Below, in pieces: positions 22,551 to 35,110 of a stretch of DNA of 64,000 bases. Each line of letters opens with the position of its first letter. Position 1 is the stretch's first letter. Origin of the DNA: an uncultured Candidatus Rokubacteria bacterium (GTDB lineage Bacteria; Methylomirabilota; Methylomirabilia; Rokubacteriales; CSP1-6); the NCBI GenBank assembly GCA_963758635.1, contig CAVWWD010000004.1:96001-160000 (forward strand), written 5' to 3'. The notes beneath the pieces are model-generated. The model ran no database searches. It was not told the DNA's origin and saw only the letters and a program-made list of their open reading frames with translations. Position numbers and translations under genes: made by a program.

Positions 22551-23445
22551 ATGCAGATCGGCCGGCTCGGGGTGTGGGCGTCGATGGACGGCATGACCGC
22601 GGCGGCGGCGGCGGACTTCGCCCGACGCGTGGAGAGCTGGGGCTATGGCGCCCTCTGGGTGCCGGAGTCGGCGGGCCGGAACGTCTACGTGCTCTCCGCC
22701 TGGCTGCTGGCATCGACGCGCACGCTGGTCATCGCCACGGGCATCGCCAACATCTACGCGCGCGATCCGCAGGCCTCGGCGTCGGCGCAGAACGCGCTGA
22801 ACGAGCAGTCCGGAGGCCGCTTCCTGCTCGGGCTGGGCGTGTCCCACGTGCCGCTGGTGGAAGGGCTCCGGGGCCACACGTACGGCAAGCCGGTCGAGAC
22901 GATGCGCGCCTACCTGGAGGGCATGCGACGGGCGGGCTACGCGGCTCCGGCGCCTCCGGAGCCTCCGCAGACGGTCCTCGCCGCCCTCCGGCCGCGGATG
23001 CTCGCGCTCTCCGCGTCCCACGGCGCCGGCGCGCACCCGTATCTGGTCACGGCCGAGCACACGAGGCAGGCGCGCCGCGCCCTCGGCCCCGGGAAGCTCT
23101 TGTGCCCGGAGCAGACCGTGCTCGGGGTGACCGACGCGACGACGGCCCGTCGCGTCGGCCGCGCCTGGATCACGCGGTACCTCGCGCTGACGAACTACCG
23201 GGAGAACCTGCTGCGGCTCGGCTTCACCGAGGGCGACCTGGCCGACGGCGGATCGGATCGCCTGGTCGACGCGCTCATCGCCTGGGGCGACCCGCGGGCG
23301 ATCCGGGCGCGCGTGGAGGAGCACTGGGCGGCGGGCGCCGACCACGTCTGCGTCCAGGCGCTCGACCCCGCGGGGGCCACGCCGGCCCGCCCCGACGAGG
23401 GCCTGCTCGCCGCGCTCGCGCCCTCGGCCTCCGACCGCGCGCTAG
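22551..23445 (+). CDS. LLM-class (putative F420-dependent) oxidoreductase; 3' end uncertain
   Basis: IGRLGVW, GYGALW, IATGIANIYARD, GRFLLGLGVSH, GAHPYLVT, AGADHVCVQ; the frame runs on to 23756 through non-homologous sequence. Confidence 0.85.
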
Positions 23446-23675
23446 AGGCCCGGCCTCACGGGCCGCCCCAGCAGGCTCCGCTCCGCCTCCCGCCGCGTCT
23501 CGAAGACGTGGGCGGAGACCTCCCGCCGCGCCAGCTCCTTGCCGAGCTTCAAGCGCAGGAAGCCGCTGTTGGTGAAGCGCGAGACCTTGAGGTAGTAGCG
23601 CTTCTCGACGTACTGCACGGCGTCCATGTACGCGGCCATGGCGTCGTCGTCGACCTCGAACCCCTCCGGCGGGTG
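23442..23675 (-). pseudogene. 3' remnant of acyl-CoA:acetate/propionate CoA-transferase-type gene
   Basis: EGFEVDDDAMAAYMDAVQYVEKRYYLKVSRFTNSGFLRLKLGKELARREVSAHVFET resembles the C-terminal extension of propionate CoA-transferases; no N-terminal body or start. Confidence 0.55.
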
Positions 23676-23704
23676 ACGCCGCAGCCGGCACGAGCACGGC
23701 CGCG

Positions 23705-25150
23705 CTACGTGCGGGATCGTTCTCGTCGCGCCGGCGCCCGGCCGCGCGCTCGATGATGTCCCCCAGGCGCGTAACGTCCTCGGCCCAGGAGCGCTCGCGT
23801 ACATGCGAACGCTAGCCGCAGCCGGGAGGTCACGCAGCTCTTCCGGCAGGTCGTCGCTGCGCGGCATCGTCGCGGCATCGACGAGGAGCGGCACGAGCGA
23901 CCTGCGCATGGTGAGCGCGGCACGCAGCGTCTCCGGAGGGGGACGGGCACGTCGGGCTCAACTTGCGGGACCTCGCGAAGGAGCGTGGCGAACGCCGGGC
24001 CGATGACCAGCAGGACCACGTGCGCGTGGGCCAGGGCGGCCTCTGGCAATGTTTCTCTGTCGGACGCGGAGTCCGGAGGCACGAGCGCGGCAGTTGCGTG
24101 TGCGTGCTCTCCGGCCCGAAGCGATCCGCCAGGTCCTGCCGGAGTCGATAGGTGTGTCGTGGTCTGTCGCCGCGTGAGAGCAGAGGTAGATGCGGAGGCG
24201 GGCCTGGTCGCGGGCAGGAGCCGGCGGTGGCGGCGCCGGCGCCCAGCGCCTTGGCCACCCGCTCGACGAGGCGCGTCAAGGCCTCGGGGCCGCCGTGGAG
24301 CGCGTCGAACGCCAGCGCGTTCCTCCGGGTGAGCGTGCGGATGGCCGGCGGAAGCTCGTCTTCGGTCGGCATGCGGGCGCCGTCGAGCAATACCGGGATG
24401 ATGCGGCCTCCGCTCTGTAGCGCGAGCGCGATCTCCTCGCTCGCGTAGCCCTCCCGCACCCCGTCGCGCGCGACGACGACCAGCGTGGCCACGGCGCGAG
24501 CCAGGATCGACTCCACGCGCGAACGGCGAACCGGGTCCGCGAAGTCGACGAAGTCGCTGCCGATCACCTCCATGTCGGGAAGCCGGTCCTGGAGCCCGCG
24601 AACGAGTGCCCGGTAGACGTAAGCGGTGGCCTCGATGAGGCCGCACGAGACGAAGAGGACCGGCTTGTCGGCCTGCGCGTCGGGCTGCCCCGCCGCGGGC
24701 CCGCGAAGCTGGCGGACGAGCGCCGAGACGTCACGTCCCACGACGGCGCCTCGACTCGGATCGCGTGGAAATCTGTCGGCTCACGGAGTGCGGGCCGGGC
24801 CTGGACGAACGTGTCGAAGGACGCGCCGTCGACCAGCACCGGGACGATGCGCTTGCCGAGCGCGCGCGCCCCCTGGATCTCCGCTGCGACGAGCTGGGTC
24901 TCCTCGCTGACCGCCTGCGTGTTGGCGATCCCAGTTGCGAATGGCCGATCGATCACGACCAGCACGGCTCGCGCCCTCTCGATCCCCGACCGCGCCCACC
25001 CCTCGATGGTCGTTCCTTCTGGCATGAACGCCAGATCACCCATGTCGTCTATGTCCCAGCCCTCTTGGCGCAGGCTCCGGACCAGCCTTCGTGCCGATTC
25101 GCTCGGATCGATGCGCGACGAGATGACATACAGGACGTTACCGGCGACCG
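23705..25150 (-). CDS. Three tandem TIR domains (C-terminal part of a large, frameshifted protein)
   Basis: TIR1 LYVISSR...ARAVLVVID...VAAEIQGA...IVPVLVDGA; TIR2 VLFVS...ASEEIALA...IIPVLLDGARMPTEDELP; TIR3 RIYLCS...RLRQDLADRFG...VVLLVIGP...LVPLLVDAATMPRSDDLPEEL. Confidence 0.75.
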
Positions 25151-27640
25151 GCGCCTGCTCAGCGACTGCCGACGTGTCTGCCCGGTTGCCGCGCTCGGCT
25201 CCAGAGGTGCGCTTGCCGGCGACTCCGACGCCAGGTCTCGCGGCGCATTCGCCGTGGCCTGCGCCAGCGGGATCAGCTCGAGCGCCAGGAGCTTCCGCGC
25301 CACGGCCTCCGCGACGGCCTCCGTCGAGTCGCCACGCGCGAGGCGGATCTCTCCGGCCTCGTGGGCGCGGGGAACGGCGGTGGCATCCAGGGCGCCGGCA
25401 CCCGTCGGGCGCACCGCGGTGAAGCGGTCAACGGCGAGGGAGGCGACGGACGGCGGCACGGCGCCTGCGGTACCTTCCCACATGACCACGTCGAGCTCGG
25501 TCGCGCCGTCGTGCCCGAGCAGCGGCGTCACGAGCCACGCGACGAGCCGTCTGAGGAGCCACGCGACGAGCCCCGTCGGGACGCCCTTCCTGCCCGCCGC
25601 GATCGACCGTGCCAGGAGGAGCGCGGCGAGGCGCCAGGCTCCGAGCTGGATCCGAGGCAGCGTTCCCCACGCGGCGCCGCGGCGGACCACGTGGCAGTCG
25701 ACGGCCCGGCCTGCCGCGTCCAGCTGTCCGTGGATCAGCCGGGCAACACGCTCGGCCGCGGCGAGATCCTCCGAAGAGCAGAGGATCACCATGAAGCGAC
25801 GGACGATACGCGGGACGGGCGGCCGCAGCAGCCGCCGGAAGTCCAGCGAGGACCGCAGCATGCGCGCCTCGAAGTGCGTCCCCGGCAGGCTCGTGAACTG
25901 GGCGGCCGTGATTCCGGGGCGTACCGCCGCTGCGGCGGAACGAGGAACGAAGGCCGTCGACAGGGGCGCCGACGAGACGATCGGCCCGAAGCCCCCGAGG
26001 AGGAGCCTCGTCCTGAGTGGCAGATCTGGGCCCCGGATGACGAGCGCCTGGGCCGAGCTCTCCATGCGGCTTCCGATGACGAAGGGCCAGAGCTCGGCGG
26101 GCGCGTACAGCTCGCGCACCGGCAACGCGGGCCAGGCGTCGGGCTGCGCGTCGGCCCAGTCGTCGAGGTGCACGGGTCGAAGCGGGAAGAGCGCTTCCAT
26201 CTCGCCGGCGAGGCCGGCGGCCCGGAGATGCTCGCCGCCGATGCGCGGGCATCCTCGGGCACGGCGAGGATGGTGACCTGGCCCCCTCGCCAGCCCCCGG
26301 CGGCGCGCGCGGCCGCGCTGACGGTCTGGCCTCTCGTCCCGTTGTGGCACCAGGATCCAGAGCGGCACGTTGCAACGGGTGCCGGGGCGGCGAACCACAG
26401 CCGGATCCATCCGTAGGAGAGCGCGGCGGCCAGCGCCACGAGCCACTCCCGGCCGAGGACCACTCCGGCGTCCAGCCGCCACAGCACGAGCGGCACGAGG
26501 CAGCAGAGCGTGGCGGCGACGAGCGTCTCGCTGACGGCCACGGCCTCGAAGCGCCCGCGCAGCTGGCCGACGACGAGCCAGCGCGGTACACGCCACGCGG
26601 TCCAGCCGAGCGCGGCGAGCAGCGAGCACGGCGACGGCCCAGCCGGCGGTGACGCGAGGCTCTCGATCGGTGTGCCCATGGCGCGCGCCCGCCGTGGATC
26701 TCGACCGTCTGGCCGAGCCAGATCGCCGATACCAGCGCCGCGGCGAGGACCAGCACGCGGAAGCAGGTGTCACGCATCGGCGCGAGCGCGACGCCTGGCC
26801 GGAGCGCCACCGCGCGCCTGCCGTCGCGGCGAGCCACGCCAGTGGTGCCGTGACGGCGGCCCAGAGCAGCGCCAGCGGCTCGATGGCCGCCAGGAAGCCG
26901 AATCCGAGGATGGTAAGCAGAGGCCACGCCGTCGCCGCGAACGTGGCGACGGCGCCGAGCGCCAGGCCTCGGCCCAGCGACGATCCGCGACTGATCGAGC
27001 GCACGACGACCGCGAACAGCAGCGCACGCGGCGAACGGCAGCAGCAGCACGAAGGTCGCCACCTGGCCGGGCGCGACGACCGTCCGGCCGAGGCTGATCA
27101 GGAACCAGGTCGTGCTGAACACGGTGGCGCCGGGCGATCCGGGGACCGCGTAGAAGACGATGGCGAGCGGGATCGCCACCACCACGGCGAGCGCGGCGGT
27201 GACCAGGATGCCCCTGAGACGCACGCCCAGCGCCACGAGCACGAGCAGGAGCGCGACGCGAGCACGAGCGGCAGCGTGCGCACGAGCGGCAACGCCACCG
27301 CGCCGACCATCTGCGCGGCGATCACGGTGACGGGCGTCGCCACGGCCAGGGCGGCGAGCCGACCGAGGCCGCGCGGCAGGCTCGGTGGCACCGGCCGCCG
27401 GCGAGCCGGGCGAGGGGAGGCCGCGGACTCCGCCGGCTTCGTGGCATAGCTCGGCGACGGCGCTCACGCCGTGACCGCCCGCCTCGTCAGCGCGCGCCGC
27501 ACGCGGCGCTCGACCCGCAGAAGGGCCAGCAGCGTGCCCGCGAACGCCAGGGCCAGCAGCCACCAGATGGGCTGCCAGCCGGCCCGGGCCAAGGTGACGT
27601 TGTGGGCGATCAGGCCCTGGAGGCGGGAGACGCCGGAGGG
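25150..27640 (-). CDS. Multi-pass membrane region plus soluble linker of the large protein (frameshifted)
   Basis: Run of hydrophobic helices (e.g. WWLLALAFAG, LLLVLVALGV, AWPLLTILGFGFLAA) in shifting frames, followed by a ~300-aa soluble segment. Confidence 0.5.
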
Positions 27641-29570
27641 CGCCGGCGCGCGGATACGGATTCAGCCTCCAGATCTGAACCGTATGGGTGCCGCATCGGA
27701 GCGTGGGCTCGTGGTGGAGGCGGCTTGCTGGCGAGCCGCGTCGGCGCGCTTCGCCTCTTCGCACGGACGCTGGCGGCGCGGGGCTCGATCGAGAGCTGTC
27801 GCGGGGGTCTCGGACGCGATCGCCAGGTACTCTCCCGTCGGCCCGATCGCGATCGTGTCGATCGGACGCCGGCGCTGCGGAGCGTGCCGAGCTCGGCGCG
27901 CGTGGTCGCGTCCCAGAGCCGCACGGTGCCGTTCGTGCTGGCCGCGATGATGCGGCGGCCGTCCGGGCTCCAGGCCACCCGGAACACCGTGCCGCTGGCC
28001 GTGGTGGCCGGACTTCCCGGCGAGTAGGCGAGAAACGGCGAGCCGATCTGGGCTCCGGTGTCCGCGTCCCAGAGACGGACGGTGCCGTCACTGAGCTGCC
28101 GGAGGCGATGAGGCGGCCGTCGGGGCTCCAGGCCACGGCCCGACACTCTCGGTGTGGCCTTCGAGGGCCGCCCGATCGGGGCGCCCGTTTGCACGTCCCA
28201 GATCCGCACCGTCCGGTCGTCGTTGCCGGAGGCGACACGGCGGCCGTCCGGGCTCCAGGCGACGCTGAACACCCAGATCGTGTTGCCCTCGAGGGGCTGG
28301 CCGATCGGGGCGCCGGTCTCGGCATCCCAGATCCTCAGGGTCGCGTCCTCGCTTCCGGAGGCGATGCGGCGGCCGTCGGGGCTCCAGGCCACGCTCGAGA
28401 CGCGGTCCGCCGTGGCGCTGAGAAAAGGAAGCGATCGGGACGACCGCTTCGACGCAGTCCCAGAGACGCAGGGTCGCCTTCCGTGCTGCCCGAGACGATG
28501 CGGCGTCCGTCCGGACTCCATGCCACGCTCCGACGCGCCCGAGTCCGGCGCGACGTCGCCTCGGAGGTGTCGACCGCTCGCCGCGTGTGCGCGTCCCAGA
28601 TCCCCAGGTTCCCGTCCCCGCCGGCCGTGACGAGGCGGCGGCCGTCCGGGCTCCACGCCATGCTCGAACACTCGATCCGACGTGCTGTCGAGCGGCTTGC
28701 CTACCGGCGTAGCGCTCTGCGTGCTCCAGAACCGCAGCGTGCCGTCATCGTCGAGCGACACGACGCGCTGCCCGTCGGGGCTCCACGCCACGCTCACGAC
28801 GGTGGCGGTGTGTCCTTCGAGGGGCACGCCGATGGGGGTGTAGGAGTCGGCGTCCCAGAGACGCAGCGTGTCGTCGGCGCTGCCGGAGAGGATGCGGCGG
28901 CCGTCGGGGCTCCACGCGACGCTCAGCACGGCGTTACGTGTGCCCCTCGAGCGGGGGTCCCAGGCTGGCCACTGACCGCGTCCCAGAGGCGCAGCGTGCC
29001 GTCGGCGCTGCCGGAGACGATACGTCGCCCGTCAGGGCTCCACGCGACGCTCGACACCTGGCCGGTGTGTCCCTGGAGCGGCGCGACGGACGGGTTGGCC
29101 GGTGTTCGCGTCCAATATCTGGATCCGTTCCGTCTTCGTCGCCCGAGGCGAGCAGCCGTGCGTCGGGGCTCCATGCGACGATCCCGAGCCAGGAGAACGC
29201 GGCTGCCGGGCACGGGCTTGCCGGCCACCAGAGCGCCGGTCCGGGCGTCCCAGACCTGCGGCGCAGGACCTCCGACCGCGACGATGCGCTGCCCATCCGC
29301 GCTCCACGCCAAGCGCAGCTCGACGGATCCGCTGTTGTCGAGCACGCGGATCGACGCGCCAGCGTCGGCGTCCCAGAGCCGGACTTCCGTCGCGTCCCCC
29401 GGAGGCGATGCGGCGGCCGTCGGGACTCCACGCCACGCTCGACACCGTGGTGCATGACCTCGGAGCGGCGCGCCGATCGGCATCCCGGTCTCCGCGTCCG
29501 AGATCCGGAGCGTGCCGGACTCGCCCCCCGAGACGACACGGCGGCCATCGGGGCTCCACGCCACCGCGAG
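27640..29570 (-). repeat. WD40 repeat region, ~13-14 repeats (two beta-propellers)
   Basis: Recurrent VAWSPDGRR(I/V)xSGSxDxT(L/V)RLWDA units; 13 clear copies plus one degenerate. Confidence 0.92.
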
Positions 29571-31864
29571 GGTTCCCGGCGCCTCGATGAGGAACGGATG
29601 GGCCCGGTCGACGAAGAACGCGTTCCGGGGATCGTCGGCGCCGCCGGCGTCGACCGGCCCGCCGCCGCCGAGCGCCGCGACCAGCGGCAGGAGCAGAAGG
29701 ACGAGCGTGAGCGCGCGCCACCGGTTGAGCCCGAGGTACGGGAGCCCGTCCGCCCAGGCCCAGCGCGCCCACTCCGCGCGGGCGCGCTGGCCGGAAGCGC
29801 GCGAGCCATCCGCGCCAGCCGGGCTCGCGCGGCAGCCGCATGCGGCGCGCCCACGAGGCCCAGCGCGCGGGGGCGCGCAGCGCGAGCTGCTCCGGCGACA
29901 CGCCGCTCATGTAGCCCAGGTAGAGCGGATCGCCCTCCGGGCGCCCGTCGCGGCGGACCGCGAAGGGCGATCGCGCCGATCGACGTCGCTGCCCGGCGGG
30001 CGCTCGAAGCCCAGCTCGATGCCGTCGGTGACGGCGCGCGGCGAGATCTTCTCCAGCAGGTCTCTCCACGACGCGCCGGAGCTCGTCCTGTCGCGCGCGC
30101 GACAGCTCGGCCAGGAGCCTGAGCCGCAGCCAGTCCGGCATGCTCTCGCGCTGGAGCCAGGGCAGCCGGACGAGCCGCCGGTAGTTGCGCGCGAGCGCCG
30201 CGCTCAGCGAGCGCTCGTTCGCGAGCGCGTGGGAGCCGGGCCAGCGCCGCCTTGCCGAGGAGCAGCGTGAGCTCCCATCGCACGATGGGCGCGATCGCGA
30301 CGGCGGCGAGCCAGTGGAAACCCGTGCTCGCCCAGGTAGACGCGCAGCTCCAGGATCAGTCGCTCGCAGCGTCGTCCTCGTCGGGCGGCTCCGCGCCGAC
30401 GAAGCGCCGCGCCGTCGCCCTGGCGCAGGAGGCCGGGAAATCGCTGCGGCTCGCTGAGCGTCACCGTGGAGAGCTGGCCGGACACGCACCAGGTCGCCCA
30501 CGCGCCGAGGGCGGACTCCTCCAGCGGCAGCACGATGAAGCCCGGGGTCCGCGGCGCTCTCCGGCGCGCTCGATCGCCTCCTCGCGCGCGCCCCAGTCGC
30601 GCGGCTCGACCGGCGTGAACAGCGCGCGGTCGCGCCAGCGGTGGAAGTGGGAGCCGAGCGCGTCCGGGCGCCACGCGCCCTGCTCGTCCACGAGCGGGTC
30701 GCCGTCCGACACCACGATGAGCCGCTCGCCGAAGCGCGGCGCCCGCGACCTGCGAGAGCTGCGTCCAGCCGCGCTCGCCCGGGCGCGCTGGCGGCGGCGG
30801 GCGGACCATGAGCGCCTCGGCGCCCGATCGCTCGTCGCGCCGGCGCCGCGAGCAGGAGGATCTCCACGTCGAGGCCTTCGCGCTCGAGCCGCTCCGCCCA
30901 CTGGAAGAAGAGCCGGCCGCGCGGGTCCCGCTCGCTGGCCACGTCCACGAGCAGGAGGTAGCAGGGGTGGATGCGGGCCATGGAGTAGCGCAGCACCGGG
31001 ATGCCCTGGTTGCGGAGCGTGGCCTCGATGGTGCGGCGCACGTCCACGAGCGGCCGCCGGGCCAGCCGCTCGATGTCGATGCCGCGGCTGCGGACGTGCC
31101 GCGCGAGACGGTCCGCCAGCTCCGGCGGCATCGGAGGCACCAGGCGGCGCGCCTCGATGGCGAGCGGCTCCGGGTCGAGGAACATCGGCTCCGACCGCCG
31201 GCGCAGGCCGCGTCCGGCTCAGGACGAGCGCGGGCAGGCTCACGCCGAGCAGCGCGAGGAGCGGAAGCGCGCCGAGGAGCCAGATCCAGCTCGGGCCGGA
31301 GCTCCACGTTGAAGCGGAACGCGGGCTCGAGGCGATCGACGGCGCGGCCCCTGAGTCACTCCGGACGCGGCGCGACGGGCGGCACGGGCGGCGCGGGGCG
31401 TGTCCGGGGCGTCCGGCCCCGGCCCTCGATCTCGGGACGGACGCGCCTTCAGCCCGAGGAGGTCGAAGCGCCAGAGCGAGGCCGCCGGCGAGGGCCACCA
31501 GCGCGAGGCCGACCAGCGCGCAGGACAGCGGGCCGGACCGCAGGGCGGCGGGGGCGGAGGAGGCGGCGGCGGCGGGGGCGGCGGTGGTGGCGCGCCGCCG
31601 CTCCGGCCCTGCCCACCAGTCGTCGAAGATCGCGTCGAACGGCTCCTGCTGCTCGCCGGACTTGCAGAACACCGGGCGGAGGCGCGAGCGAAGCCGATCG
31701 CGATCGCCCAGGTCGGCCCCGCGCTCTCCGAGCGTCAGGAGGAGCTGGGTCGCGTCGATGGCCTCGGATACGCCGACGGGGAAGCCCGCGGCCCGGAGCG
31801 CCTCGACGAGATCCGCGATGCCCGGCCGCGGCCGAGCGTCGGCCGGCTCGGCGCTCGCGCTCAT
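29570..31864 (-). CDS. vWA-type (CoxE-like) MoxR partner; N-terminal part of the large membrane protein (frameshifted)
   Basis: LVEALRAAGFPVGVSE...VFCKSGEQQEPFDAIF helical N-terminus; DVRRTIEATLR; YLLLVD; LIVVSDG; WRDRALFTP; TM segments before and after. Confidence 0.75.
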
Positions 31865-33046
31865 GCCGGCCGCGCGCTCGAACCCCTCGAGGAACTCGCG
31901 CAGGATGCGGTGGTCGTCCTTGTGCTTGGAGACCGCCGACGCCGTCTTGCGCACGAGGTCGATCTGCTCCGTGAGCGCCGCGTCCGGCGCCGCCGCCTGC
32001 GCGCGGAGCGCCGCCGTCCAGTCGATCAGCTCGGAGGTGCCCGGCCGGTACTGGAGCTCGTCCTGGTGCTGCTCGCGGAAGTCCCAGAACCGCTCCAGGA
32101 GCTGCCGGTAGAAGGGTGGCAGCGCGGGCCCGCCCTGGCCGCCCTCGGCGCGGCGGTCGGCGAAGAAGCGCTGGGCCACGATGTCCGTCAGCTCGTCGCG
32201 GGTCGGGTCCGGGATGTGGAAGAACGTGCAGCGGCGCAGGAACGGCGCGGGCAGGTCGCGCTCGGAGTTGCTCGTGATGATCACGATGGGCCGGTGCTCC
32301 GGGTGCACCTCCATGGGGGCCAGGCCCAGCTCGCGCACGCGGAACTCGAGCCGCTCGATGCCGTTCAGGAGGTCGTTCGGGAAGTCGCGGCTGGTCTTGT
32401 CGATCTCGTCGATGAGGACCACGCTCGGCCGCGCGGCGGTCGCGGCCGCGCGCTCGCCGGGCCCGAACACCGCGTCGAACAGCACGTCGTACCGCGCCGG
32501 GTCCGAGCGCACGATGGCCTCGCCGAGCGGACCCAGCTTGACGAACCGCTCGGGGGCCAGCGGCTTCGGCTCGTTCCGGATCTGCGTGGCCAGCTCGCCG
32601 CGGATCTGGGTGGCGATCTCCTCCGGAGCCTCGGGCTTCGTGGCGAGCCTGAACATCTCGACCGCGGCCAGGTGCCCGACGAGGTCGAAGCGGTAGAAGA
32701 GGTCGTTGGCCTCCGACAGCGACTGGGCCTCGAATCGCAGCACCGGGCCCAGGTTGAGCTCCCACGCGATCCGCTCGGCGAGCTGGCTCTTCCCCGTGCC
32801 GGGGTTGCCGGTGAGGAGGAGCGGCTTCGACAGCGCCAGCGCGGTGTTGACGGCGTCGGCCAGGTCCGGCCGCGCGCGATAGTTGGCGGGATGGTTGGGG
32901 AAGCGCAGGTTGTCCTGCTCGCCGGGGTCCGCGTGATGGCGGCGCCAGGGCCCGATCCGACCGTCCCAGGGGTCGATCTCGCCGATGCGGGAGCCGAGCG
33001 CGGCGAGGTCTCCCCGGCCGACGAAGGTGAAGCGATGGGGCGCCAT
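31861..33046 (-). CDS. MoxR-family AAA+ ATPase
   Basis: AVNTALALSKPLLLTGNPGTGKS Walker A, VVLIDEIDK Walker B, DFPNDLL, ITSNSERDLPAPFLRRC; GAGGAGG RBS. Confidence 0.93.
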
Positions 33047-33056
33047 GCCGTCCTCC

Positions 33057-33662
33057 TCAGCCTGTCCTTGGTCTTGTCGCAGATGATCAGGCGTCACCGC
33101 GTCCGCGATCTGGTCCGCGCTCTCGGCCGGCCTGTCCTGGCTCGCGCCAGGTGAACCGGTCGTGCCGCAGGCGGATGAGCCACGAGTTGCTCTTGGTGTC
33201 GGAGAGCCAGAGGTCGCGGACGCGCCAGAGGTCCCAGGCCGGCTTCTCGACCGGGGCGAGGAACACGCGGACGCGCTCGGCCGGGTCCGTCTTGACGACG
33301 CGGTCGACGAATCGCGCCATCTCGCCCGCGGACGGCGCGCGCCCCTTGAAGTCGGTGTTGGCGTTGATGTACCGGCTGCTGAGGACGGCGACGAAGTCCG
33401 TCACGCCGCTGTCCCGTTGGGCAGGGTCGGGGCGCCGAGCGCCGACGGCGCCCGCCTCCACGGCCTCGCTCTGCGCCTCCACCGTCTGCAGGGGCTCGTC
33501 GAACTCGTCTCCGATGAGCGCGCCCATGTCGCCGCGCAGGCGCTCCCAGAAGTCGCCGATCCAGGTGCGCTGCTCGGGCACCGACGGATCCACCCAGGAG
33601 ACGAACACGCACCGGCGCGAGACGATCTTCTTCGCCCGGAAGGCCTTGGTGTTGGCCGGCAT
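33057..33662 (-). CDS. Divergent TIR-like domain protein (3' end uncertain)
   Basis: CVFVSW, WIGDFWERLR, FVAVLSSRY, GEMARF, VFLAPV follow the TIR secondary-structure order. Confidence 0.55.
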
Positions 33663-33694: not shown

Positions 33695-34344
33695 CTACGC
33701 GATGACCCGCTGCAGGCGCCGGATGAGCTGCGCGATCTGATCGCCCAGCCTGGCCTCGTTCTCCCAGGCCAGGCGCACCAGCCTCCGGTTCTCGTCGAAC
33801 GGACCCAGGAACTGCACGTCGCCGATCTTCTCGATCAACGGGCTCGGGCTCTTGATGCGCCCCGCGAGCCGATCCTGGGTGAACAGGAAGTAGTCCGGGT
33901 TGAGGTCCTCGACCAGCACGAACAGCAGCCGGACGGGCGCCTGCGCCTCGAAGCGCTCGACGATGCGCGCCACTTCCTTGCGGCAGTAGTCGGAGCCCCA
34001 GTAGGCGTTGGTGAGGAGCACCACGAAGTGCGTGGTCCGGTCGAGGGCGGAGACGATCTTCTCGTCGAACAGGTCGGCCGGCTCGACCTCGTGGTCGTCC
34101 ATGAAGACGTCGCGTTCCACGCGTCCGCCGCCGGCGCCAGGGCCTCGAACAGCTTGTTCGCGATGCCGGTCGTGGGCGCGGCGTGGCGGTAGGAGATGAA
34201 GATGGTCGGCCGCGGGGAGTGATGACGCGGGCACGGCCGGCCGAGCGCGTCGGCCGGGCGATGGCCCGGGCGGGCTTCGCCCCGGCCGGCTTGCGCCGGG
34301 CTGGCGTCTTCGCCGACGGGGCGCGTCGATCGCTTCCTGCCCAC
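33695..34344 (-). CDS. TIR domain protein (frameshifted near N-terminus)
   Basis: TIFISYRH, DVFMDD, FVVLLTNAYWGSDYCRKE (catalytic Glu position); GGAG RBS plus GTG at 34344. Confidence 0.85.
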
Positions 34345-34522: not shown

Positions 34523-35110
34523 TCAGGCGGGAGGCAGGAGCAGGTGCATCGTCGCCTCCAGCACGTCGCGCCACGGCAGGTGCGCGATCGGGCTTCCCGC
34601 GTTGTCCCTCGTGCGGAGGCCGGGCACGTAGATCTGGGTCATCGAACGGTCCGGATCGTAGCGGAAGAGCCCGTGATGGCCCTCCAGCGGCCGGCGTCCG
34701 GCGGGCACGAGCACGGTTCCGTCGGGGCTGACCAGCGATCCGTACGCCACCGCGCCGGGACGGATCGCCCGGGGCGTGCCGCTCCACGCGGCGAGGGGGG
34801 CGATCACCTTCGCGTAGAGCAGGACGTCCATGCTGCTCCACTCGAGAGGCACCGCCAGCGCCGAGCGGCCGGCCTGGGCGAGCGAGACCCGATCCCGCCG
34901 CGCGAGCTGCAGCAGGGCATCGTGCACGCTCCGGCCGAACCACCACGCTCCCGAATACCAGCGCGAGCTGTCAGCGGCGTTGCCGAACCGGTAGATCTGC
35001 ATGCCGGGTAGCAGCATCACGTCCACCACGCTGCTCATCCCGGACTCGGCGGACTCGCGCTCTTCCACCGAGCCGAGGTACGCGTGGTTCGCCGCGGTCA
35101 GCGTGGGCAT
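34523..35110 (-). CDS. Hypothetical protein, possible ADP-ribosyltransferase/NADase-like fold
   Basis: Intact 195-aa ORF with IYRF...GAWW...ALAVPLEWS...QIYVPG motif order. Confidence 0.55.
   Translation of the reverse strand: MPTLTAANHAYLGSVEERESAESGMSSVVDVMLLPGMQIYRFGNAADSSRWYSGAWWFGRSVHDALLQLARRDRVSLAQAGRSALAVPLEWSSMDVLLYAKVIAPLAAWSGTPRAIRPGAVAYGSLVSPDGTVLVPAGRRPLEGHHGLFRYDPDRSMTQIYVPGLRTRDNAGSPIAHLPWRDVLEATMHLLLPPA

Follow-up and report, generated by a model that had tools for sequence, protein, structure and literature searches.

Does a region of rokubacterial DNA crowded with frame breaks encode one giant receptor or several smaller proteins? The question is raised by a stretch of 64,000 nucleotides (hereafter the window; positions 96,001 to 160,000 of contig CAVWWD010000004.1, assembly GCA_963758635.1) from an uncultured Candidatus Rokubacteria bacterium. 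On its minus strand, between 31864 and 23705, the initial annotation had proposed a giant protein (~2,700 amino acids if encoded by a single open reading frame, ORF, which its frameshifts kept from being proved) with the topology of a Toll-like receptor, i.e., a transmembrane (TM) repeat sensor joined to TIR domains and remodelled by MoxR. Our analysis indicates that the region very probably consists of two neighbouring genes and not of one polypeptide. These genes, here called gene 4 and gene 5, follow three further genes on the same strand, in the order TIR, TIR-like, MoxR, gene 4, gene 5. The best explanation overall, to which we assign a probability of roughly 0.7, is a five-gene conflict operon that derives from iSTAND-type MoxR-vWA ternary systems and was garbled by insertion and deletion errors of the assembly. 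The two genes and their junction are arranged as follows:

27464–31864, minus strand: gene 4, ~1,460 amino acids, with a helical domain, TM1, TM2, a vWA domain, a helical linker, TM3, a double propeller, TM4 and a basic tail of 17 amino acids
27464–27467, minus strand: GTGA overlap of the gene 4 stop (in-frame TGA, 27466–27464) and the gene 5 start (GTG, 27467)
23705–27467, minus strand: gene 5, ~1,250 amino acids, with a multi-TM block, a Rossmann-like domain, a second alpha/beta domain and three TIR domains; 3' end approximate

The TGA is situated 17 codons past TM4 (27568), and the homologues of both genes were compared with this boundary. A search over proteins of 925–2,944 amino acids, in which the best 8,000 candidates were scored, yielded 44 homologues of gene 4 with lengths of 1,078–1,710 amino acids; 39 of them terminate in a TM helix plus 9–50 residues, and none is fused to the gene-5 domain or to MoxR. 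The C-termini of three of six homologues tried (P0143, P0142, and P0147) map to 27482–27494 with 5–9 residues remaining, and the other three alignments ended earlier, within the propeller. An all-length profile search with the gene-5 domain gave 114 matches (including the window's own fragment), all of them no longer than 1,399 amino acids, with the domain starting at residue 449 at the latest and without a vWA core in any member. The nearest full-length gene-5 homologues start 29–47 residues before a motif that is located ~30 codons past GTG 27467 (six of the seven nearest homologues matched the motif pattern). No fusion of the two genes was present in the eight loci that hold both (two of them near-identical) among 91 MoxR loci, and seven further gene-4/gene-5 pairs, paired by identical longest-contig size, are separate proteins.

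The window has a G + C content of 72% and belongs to a 6.2 Mb assembly of 12 contigs that is 87% complete. That the region is riddled with frameshifts, as described initially, is borne out by a codon model trained on the genome and combined with three-frame translation, which demanded 42 frame shifts between 31864 and 23705. Model shifts amounted to 3.7 per kb in the region versus a genome median of 0.97 per kb in 145 random 8-kb tiles, which places the locus in the top 3.5% of these tiles. From its ATG at 31864, and starting at residue 1, gene 4 could be aligned without meeting a stop to the uninterrupted homologue L025, with which its first ~790 residues are 55% identical. This corroborates the helical N-terminus proposed before; 13 of the 16 breaks in this alignment are extra bases, a pattern expected of read errors. 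Short-read contigs of relatives contained about as many gaps as the codon model predicted (one in 29729–29953, two in 24113–24426, and none in 28697–28907), and six single extra bases were found at 33072–33143 in comparison with such contigs from one or two runs. The sequencing runs share only 0.06–0.11 of the words and represent relatives, not the source, and provide no evidence of its habitat. Their contigs, which are short pieces possibly from different strains, differ from the window at 25 of 211 and 15 of 164 bases in the propeller, by ~1–5% in MoxR, and by <1.5% in the upstream flank. One of them spans the TGA and has two gaps, a pattern compatible with a pair of genes lying in different frames, among other possible readings. 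Based on the break rate of the whole genome and the gap numbers in the relatives' contigs, the frame breaks look like assembly errors.

Two alternatives concern the integrity of the locus itself. If it encoded one giant chain in the style of a Toll-like receptor, the TGA would be a sequencing error or the chain a strain-specific gene fusion. A single false stop is conceivable in so error-prone an assembly, and the sole contig that covers the TGA belongs to a relative. However, the TGA lies where homologues of gene 4 end and overlaps a GTG where those of gene 5 begin, a fused form is absent from all 44 gene-4 homologues, 114 gene-5 matches and eight loci, and the seven additional pairs are separate proteins, so that a single chain is very improbable and the one-polypeptide receptor, divided by a true stop, was abandoned. 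The other alternative, a decayed pseudo-operon whose frame breaks are real in the strain, draws on the unusual break density and on the assembled MoxR, which reads into gene 4 without a stop. It is contradicted by the agreement between the relatives' short-read gaps and the codon model, the occurrence of ~1 break per kb across the entire genome, and the predominance of extra bases relative to L025, and is regarded as improbable.

Within gene 4, two domains define the predicted architecture:

30500–31190, minus strand: vWA-like domain with degenerate metal ion-dependent adhesion site (MIDAS), assigned by homology to vWA genes of iSTAND loci; bounds approximate
27660–29570, minus strand: 14 WD40 repeats forming two seven-bladed propellers between TM3 and TM4, assigned by Pfam and repeat motifs

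Most of the architecture outlined in the initial annotation was recovered here. Two TM helices (TM1 at ~31522 and TM2 at ~31279) precede the vWA-like domain and one (TM3 at ~29714) precedes the WD40 repeats, of which 14 motifs were counted between 29561 and 27850 (Pfam WD40, E 1e-48). The motifs LLLVDVASE and VSDG of the degenerate MIDAS are present as well. In the homologues the first Asp of this site is kept in 41 of 43 and the second in 22 of 43 cases, with mostly Ala and Glu/Gln at the serine positions; the window's domain retains both Asp residues and has its serines replaced. Identification of this domain as vWA is suggested by a profile of the gene-4 core that finds the vWA genes of loci with iSTAND upstream, together with marginal matches to Pfam VWA_CoxE (E 0.055, in 3 of 34). 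Column-wise identity to homologue L027 falls from 0.52 in the vWA domain through 0.42 in the linker to 0.18 in the propellers, whose repeats align poorly. Among the 44 homologues, TM1 was detected in 43, TM2 in all, and propeller families are listed for 42. Lys + Arg are in excess before TM1 (37/43), after TM2 (33/44, with 10 ties), before TM3 (34/42), and after TM4 (34/39). Since this bias alternates as required for a four-TM topology with the N-terminus inside, a cytoplasmic location of the vWA domain and helical linker and a periplasmic location of the double propeller are well supported by sequence, as had been proposed.

The second chain is composed of the following parts:

26390–27360, minus strand: membrane block of gene 5, eight hydrophobic segments in the broken sequence according to a hydropathy scan
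26010–26371, minus strand: signature domain of gene 5, alpha/beta Rossmann-like model, based on family profile and predicted structure
25250–25810, minus strand: second conserved alpha/beta domain, found in a subset of the family, with marginal TIR likeness (E 0.007 over 29 columns)
23746–25140, minus strand: three divergent TIR domains (25133–24735, ~24680–24244, and ~24200–23746)

A multi-TM block had been noted before and exists, but the TM helix at 27568 that was counted into it is TM4 of gene 4. The same kind of scan found 4–10 hydrophobic segments in the block of the seven nearest homologues, and family members with at least 150 residues ahead of the signature domain contain at least two (98 of 100) or at least four (84 of 100) segments there. 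What had been regarded as a soluble linker turned out to be the two conserved alpha/beta domains. The three TIR domains could be retained: the first two match TIR_2 with E 0.01 and 0.004, both below the Pfam cut-off, and the third scores 73 against an intact TIR, compared with 28–45 for 10 shuffles. Glu occupies the catalytic position in TIR1 and TIR2, and in TIR3 this position falls on a frame break. An intact protein with the order TM, domain, and three TIRs is P0030 (932 amino acids).

Behind a constant membrane block and signature domain, the C-terminal tails, scanned in 53 of the 114 family members, are highly diverse (14 TIR, 7 WD40, 4 OmpA, 4 TPR, 2 trypsin, and 20 without a match; single cases of POT/MFS, IcmF-N and NAD-binding, plus CHAT and caspase beside TIR). 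An extra TM helix precedes the tail in all four OmpA cases, in none of the seven WD40 cases and in 2 of the 14 TIR cases. Because OmpA tails follow such a helix while WD40 and most TIR tails do not, the signature domain and the TIRs of gene 5 are placed in the cytoplasm, which is also where the TIRs had been expected. The signature domain belongs to no Pfam family, and two or three full-length members had no PADLOC or NCBIfam match; clustered at 50% identity, the unannotated membrane family to which gene 5 belongs has no fewer than 114 clusters. Its predicted structure is alpha/beta Rossmann-like, with a predicted local distance difference test score (pLDDT) of 74. In a VIA structure comparison of the signature domain the best Z was 7.1 (107 residues, root-mean-square deviation 3.6), with ties to numerous Rossmann folds including RCK, glycosyltransferase and CARF-like chains (Z 6–7), and none of 48,161 chains reached Z ≥8. 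No Foldseek match with E <0.001 and no usable Atlas match were obtained. HHalign comparison with TIR gave E 0.14, and TIR chains were not among the 50 matches listed, a result still compatible with that fold. The multi-TM tails of iSTAND-type vWA proteins showed no homology to the gene-5 membrane block in six loci checked. One family member, P0005 (860 amino acids), has the signature domain without membrane block, placed between two TIRs on its N-terminal side and a P-loop domain.

Two further TIR genes upstream and the kinship with a described type of system had been overlooked in the earlier reading. The upstream part of the operon comprises:

33695–34234, minus strand: gene 1, canonical soluble TIR with Glu at the catalytic position (CRKE; Pfam TIR_2, E 6e-9); start uncertain, frame break near 34112
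33060–33662, minus strand: gene 2, divergent TIR-like protein (~200 amino acids in relatives) in the place of iSTAND; approximate, 3' end scrambled by extra bases
31861–33046, minus strand: gene 3, MoxR AAA+ ATPase (Pfam AAA/AAA_5), its C-terminus aligning with the ends of homologues

The TIR of gene 1 is also found upstream in the loci of relatives. Gene 2 aligned with TIR in HHalign with E 1.9e-5 (controls E >0.2), its homologue L024 was assigned to TIR in the Atlas (0.94 by features, TM-score 0.58 by structure), and Glu stands at the catalytic position in 14 of 18 homologues. As assembled, MoxR continues into gene 4 without a change of frame. A natural MoxR-vWA fusion was considered and rejected, as none of 45 loci with the vWA core is fused; a one-base error immediately ahead of an ATGA overlap is probable, and one gap relative to short-read contigs can be confined by inference to 31778–31904. 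The MoxRs of the clade described below have an N-terminal extension (33046–32880, minus strand, in the window) with invariant F-x-G-x-G, W, and HP-x-x-Y motifs that loosely resemble those of VMAP-type MoxR.

A quick MoxR tree of 96 rows, in which short fragments and the near-duplicates L033 and L046 were left out, united the 19 MoxRs associated with TIR-like genes in one clade (Shimodaira–Hasegawa-like approximate likelihood ratio test, 99) nested inside the iSTAND-associated MoxRs. Of 47 upstream genes scanned in more distant loci, 32 are iSTAND, and no member of the clade has iSTAND upstream. Where the downstream DNA was long enough, gene 5 came after gene 4 in 8 of 9 loci of the clade versus 0 of 18 others, kin not being independent in these counts. 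The arrangement of a TIR, a TIR-like gene and MoxR recurs in Burkholderiales, Massilia, Rhodoferax, Rhodocyclaceae, Methylococcaceae, and metagenome contigs, and an intact-looking operon is available in a named Massilia isolate genome. Within the window's phylum, gene 5 was found in 1 of 251 genomes, namely the window's own, and in none of the 250 others. A search for close copies of the MoxR in 60 relatives gave only distant AAA+ matches (best E 2.6e-12; the unpublished genomes G009 and G023 enter only this tally and possibly also that of the 251 genomes), and a plasmid search only six distant vWA cores. PF19995 (iSTAND) had no match in genes 1–2, their homologues or the 87% complete genome, and VMAP-C none in genes 1–2 or the genome, the built-in controls of both genome searches having given no signal.

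Judged from its genes, the locus is a TIR-bearing variant of the iSTAND type of MoxR-vWA system, extended by a membrane component that has no name as yet and is the fifth gene. With the iSTAND systems, as presented in parts of PMC7159879, it shares the order of third component, MoxR and vWA, a MoxR that nests among theirs, a homologous vWA core with N-terminal helical domain and TM helices, a TM helix ahead of the C-terminal module, and a TIR upstream. The same parts report an N-terminal TM helix on the vWA component in ~28% of cases and a vWA C-terminus that is a highly variable effector. In contrast, the present locus has a separate TIR and TIR-like pair in place of iSTAND, its vWA tail is a fixed double propeller with a fourth TM helix behind it, and the variable tail has moved onto the added multi-TM gene 5. 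Membrane-proximal fusion of vWA and propeller also characterizes the beta-propeller ternary systems described in passages of PMC7159879, but in these ~4 blades directly follow vWA, the third component is of the TPR/propeller type and conventional effectors are absent; the bpMoxR profile scores the MoxR of the locus at 17.8 bits (cut-off 27), and its neighbours are TIR and TIR-like, not TPR/propeller. The TERNS3 and iSTAND2 systems in sections of PMC8195603 likewise feature a TIR upstream of MoxR-vWA and effectors on a separate downstream gene. There, however, the linker vWA-L is carried by that separate gene and a TIR is fused to TERNS3, whereas here gene 4 keeps the helical linker joined to its vWA domain and a multi-TM family occupies the downstream position. 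The Esr pathway of Actinomycetota, in which a surface WD40 propeller together with MoxR and vWA was shown experimentally to sense epibionts (preprint PMC13622651), also links an extracytoplasmic WD40 threat sensor to MoxR and vWA, but uses a secreted Ig-stalk sensor that is not fused to vWA and a kinase/FHA output, lacks TIR, and operates in monoderm hosts. Pairs of active and inactive TIRs have been described for ParA systems in parts of bioRxiv 10.64898/2026.10.19.760177. A published description of the five-gene variant was not found, although Figure 1-source data 1 of PMC7159879 might still list such neighbourhoods.

The position of the MoxR clade inside the iSTAND type, the coupling of gene 5, the variable tails, the patchy spread and the precedent in the Esr sections of PMC13622651 make it highly probable that the locus is a conflict or defence operon of the iSTAND-type MoxR-vWA lineage. 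How it would function is more tentative. The products of gene 4 and gene 5 could form a two-chain receptor of the inner membrane, in which the propellers would recognize an envelope ligand that is foreign or arises from damage. MoxR, which would reset or fire this receptor, would grip the vWA domain, remodel the complex with ATP and thereby set a threshold; the TIRs of gene 5 would next form clusters with the two soluble TIR proteins, and cleavage of NAD+ would kill or arrest the cell or generate a signal. In all its details, this mechanism falls slightly short of an even chance, with the initially proposed coupling of the receptor to MoxR graded as supported. Animal Toll-like receptors are single-pass leucine-rich-repeat proteins with a TIR of their own and soluble TIR partners. 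By analogy only, the locus shares with them a repeat domain outside, TIR inside and soluble TIR partners, but has WD40 repeats, four TM helices, TIRs on a second chain, and AAA+ control. One could go further and speculate, as a possible yet doubtful joint reading, that it is a split Toll-like receptor of Gram-negatives, with a four-TM sensor bearing the periplasmic double propeller and an unnamed multi-TM transducer with swappable cytoplasmic tails (TIR, CHAT/caspase, trypsin, TPR, or WD40). MoxR would arm or reset it, the soluble TIRs would serve as adaptor and NADase, and contact of phage, predator or epibiont with the envelope would trigger TIR signalling before foreign nucleic acid enters.

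The main rival of the two-chain receptor treats gene 4 as a self-contained iSTAND-like unit that signals to the soluble TIR pair via MoxR, and gene 5 as an accessory effector that has no contact with gene 4 and is gated at its Rossmann-like domain by a nucleotide made by TIR. In its favour are the Rossmann-like model of the signature domain with its RCK, glycosyltransferase and CARF-like ties, the canonical TIR of gene 1, and the multi-TM effectors gated by nucleotides in other conflict systems (SLATT passage of PMC7159879). These fold matches are generic, though, gene 5 bears variable tails of its own that include the periplasmic OmpA, and TM4 of gene 4 with its short tail would have no evident use absent a membrane partner, so that nucleotide gating appears unlikely. 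A function outside defence, such as MoxR-assisted membrane assembly or an envelope-stress complex, would accord with the frequent role of MoxR-vWA pairs in assembling enzymes (passages of PMC7159879) and with PADLOC, no model of which matched genes 2, 4 or 5 beyond generic TIR matches in P0030. Against it stand the five domains of TIR type, the hypervariable tails, the ancestry in iSTAND systems and the occurrence in only 1 of 251 genomes of the phylum, and its probability is low.

Several points weigh against the conflict operon with a two-chain receptor as proposed here. The MoxR tree is a quick one based on a search seeded with clade members and lacking VMAP-type MoxR, and one locus (L035) has the upstream genes of the clade with a downstream gene that misses the gene-5 profile. 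No solved structure was matched by the vWA core at the sequence level and Pfam matches are marginal; the topology was derived solely from hydropathy and charge in the 44 homologues; and a propeller tail nearly fixed in the clade (42/44) fits a structural role equally well. The pairing of gene 4 with gene 5 is something that we only infer. The TIRs of gene 5 may be inactive, given their scores below the Pfam cut-off and the absence of the usual FISY start. In PMC7159879 the vWA tail is assigned the effector role and the third component that of the sensor, the reverse of our model.

MoxR-vWA ternary systems have been predicted to act in immunity, and there is dispute over their sensor and trigger, the third component being favoured as sensor in parts of PMC7159879 and the vWA chain in parts of PMC10907252. 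In the clade described here the usual third component is lost, the vWA chain bears a fixed propeller in the periplasm and the variable output has shifted to a new family of membrane proteins, and these three changes make the sensor question directly testable. The operon may detect threats at the cell surface and, if this is true, would represent bacterial transmembrane TIR signalling from an envelope sensor.

Some related loci and neighbouring sequences deserve brief mention. In Massilia locus L018 (11062–20222), gene 4 seems to have a frameshift close to its end and extends over gene 5 in another frame; gene 5 is tailless here and followed by a 1,066-amino-acid protein without Pfam match. Homologues of gene 4 are also present in Paraburkholderia elongata and P. 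caffeinitolerans (P0164 and P0165), and locus L076 (4331–19342) carries a tandem pair of MoxR-vWA systems on one contig. Related vWA proteins in L022 (11145–16233) and L023 (2602–7241) terminate in an FGE-sulfatase-like domain, and the ORFs after these genes encode what we take to be reverse transcriptases of diversity-generating retroelements. Directly after gene 5, a well-coded fragment of 80 residues without N-terminus (23445–23684, minus strand), which presumably resembles the C-terminal region of an acyl-CoA transferase, could be the trace of a gene interrupted by an insertion; it has no second copy in the genome and no NCBIfam match. Upstream of the operon lies an ORF of 195 amino acids (34523–35110, minus strand) without Pfam or NCBIfam match, to which the relatives' contigs are 99–100% identical, compared with 88–99% for pieces of the operon.

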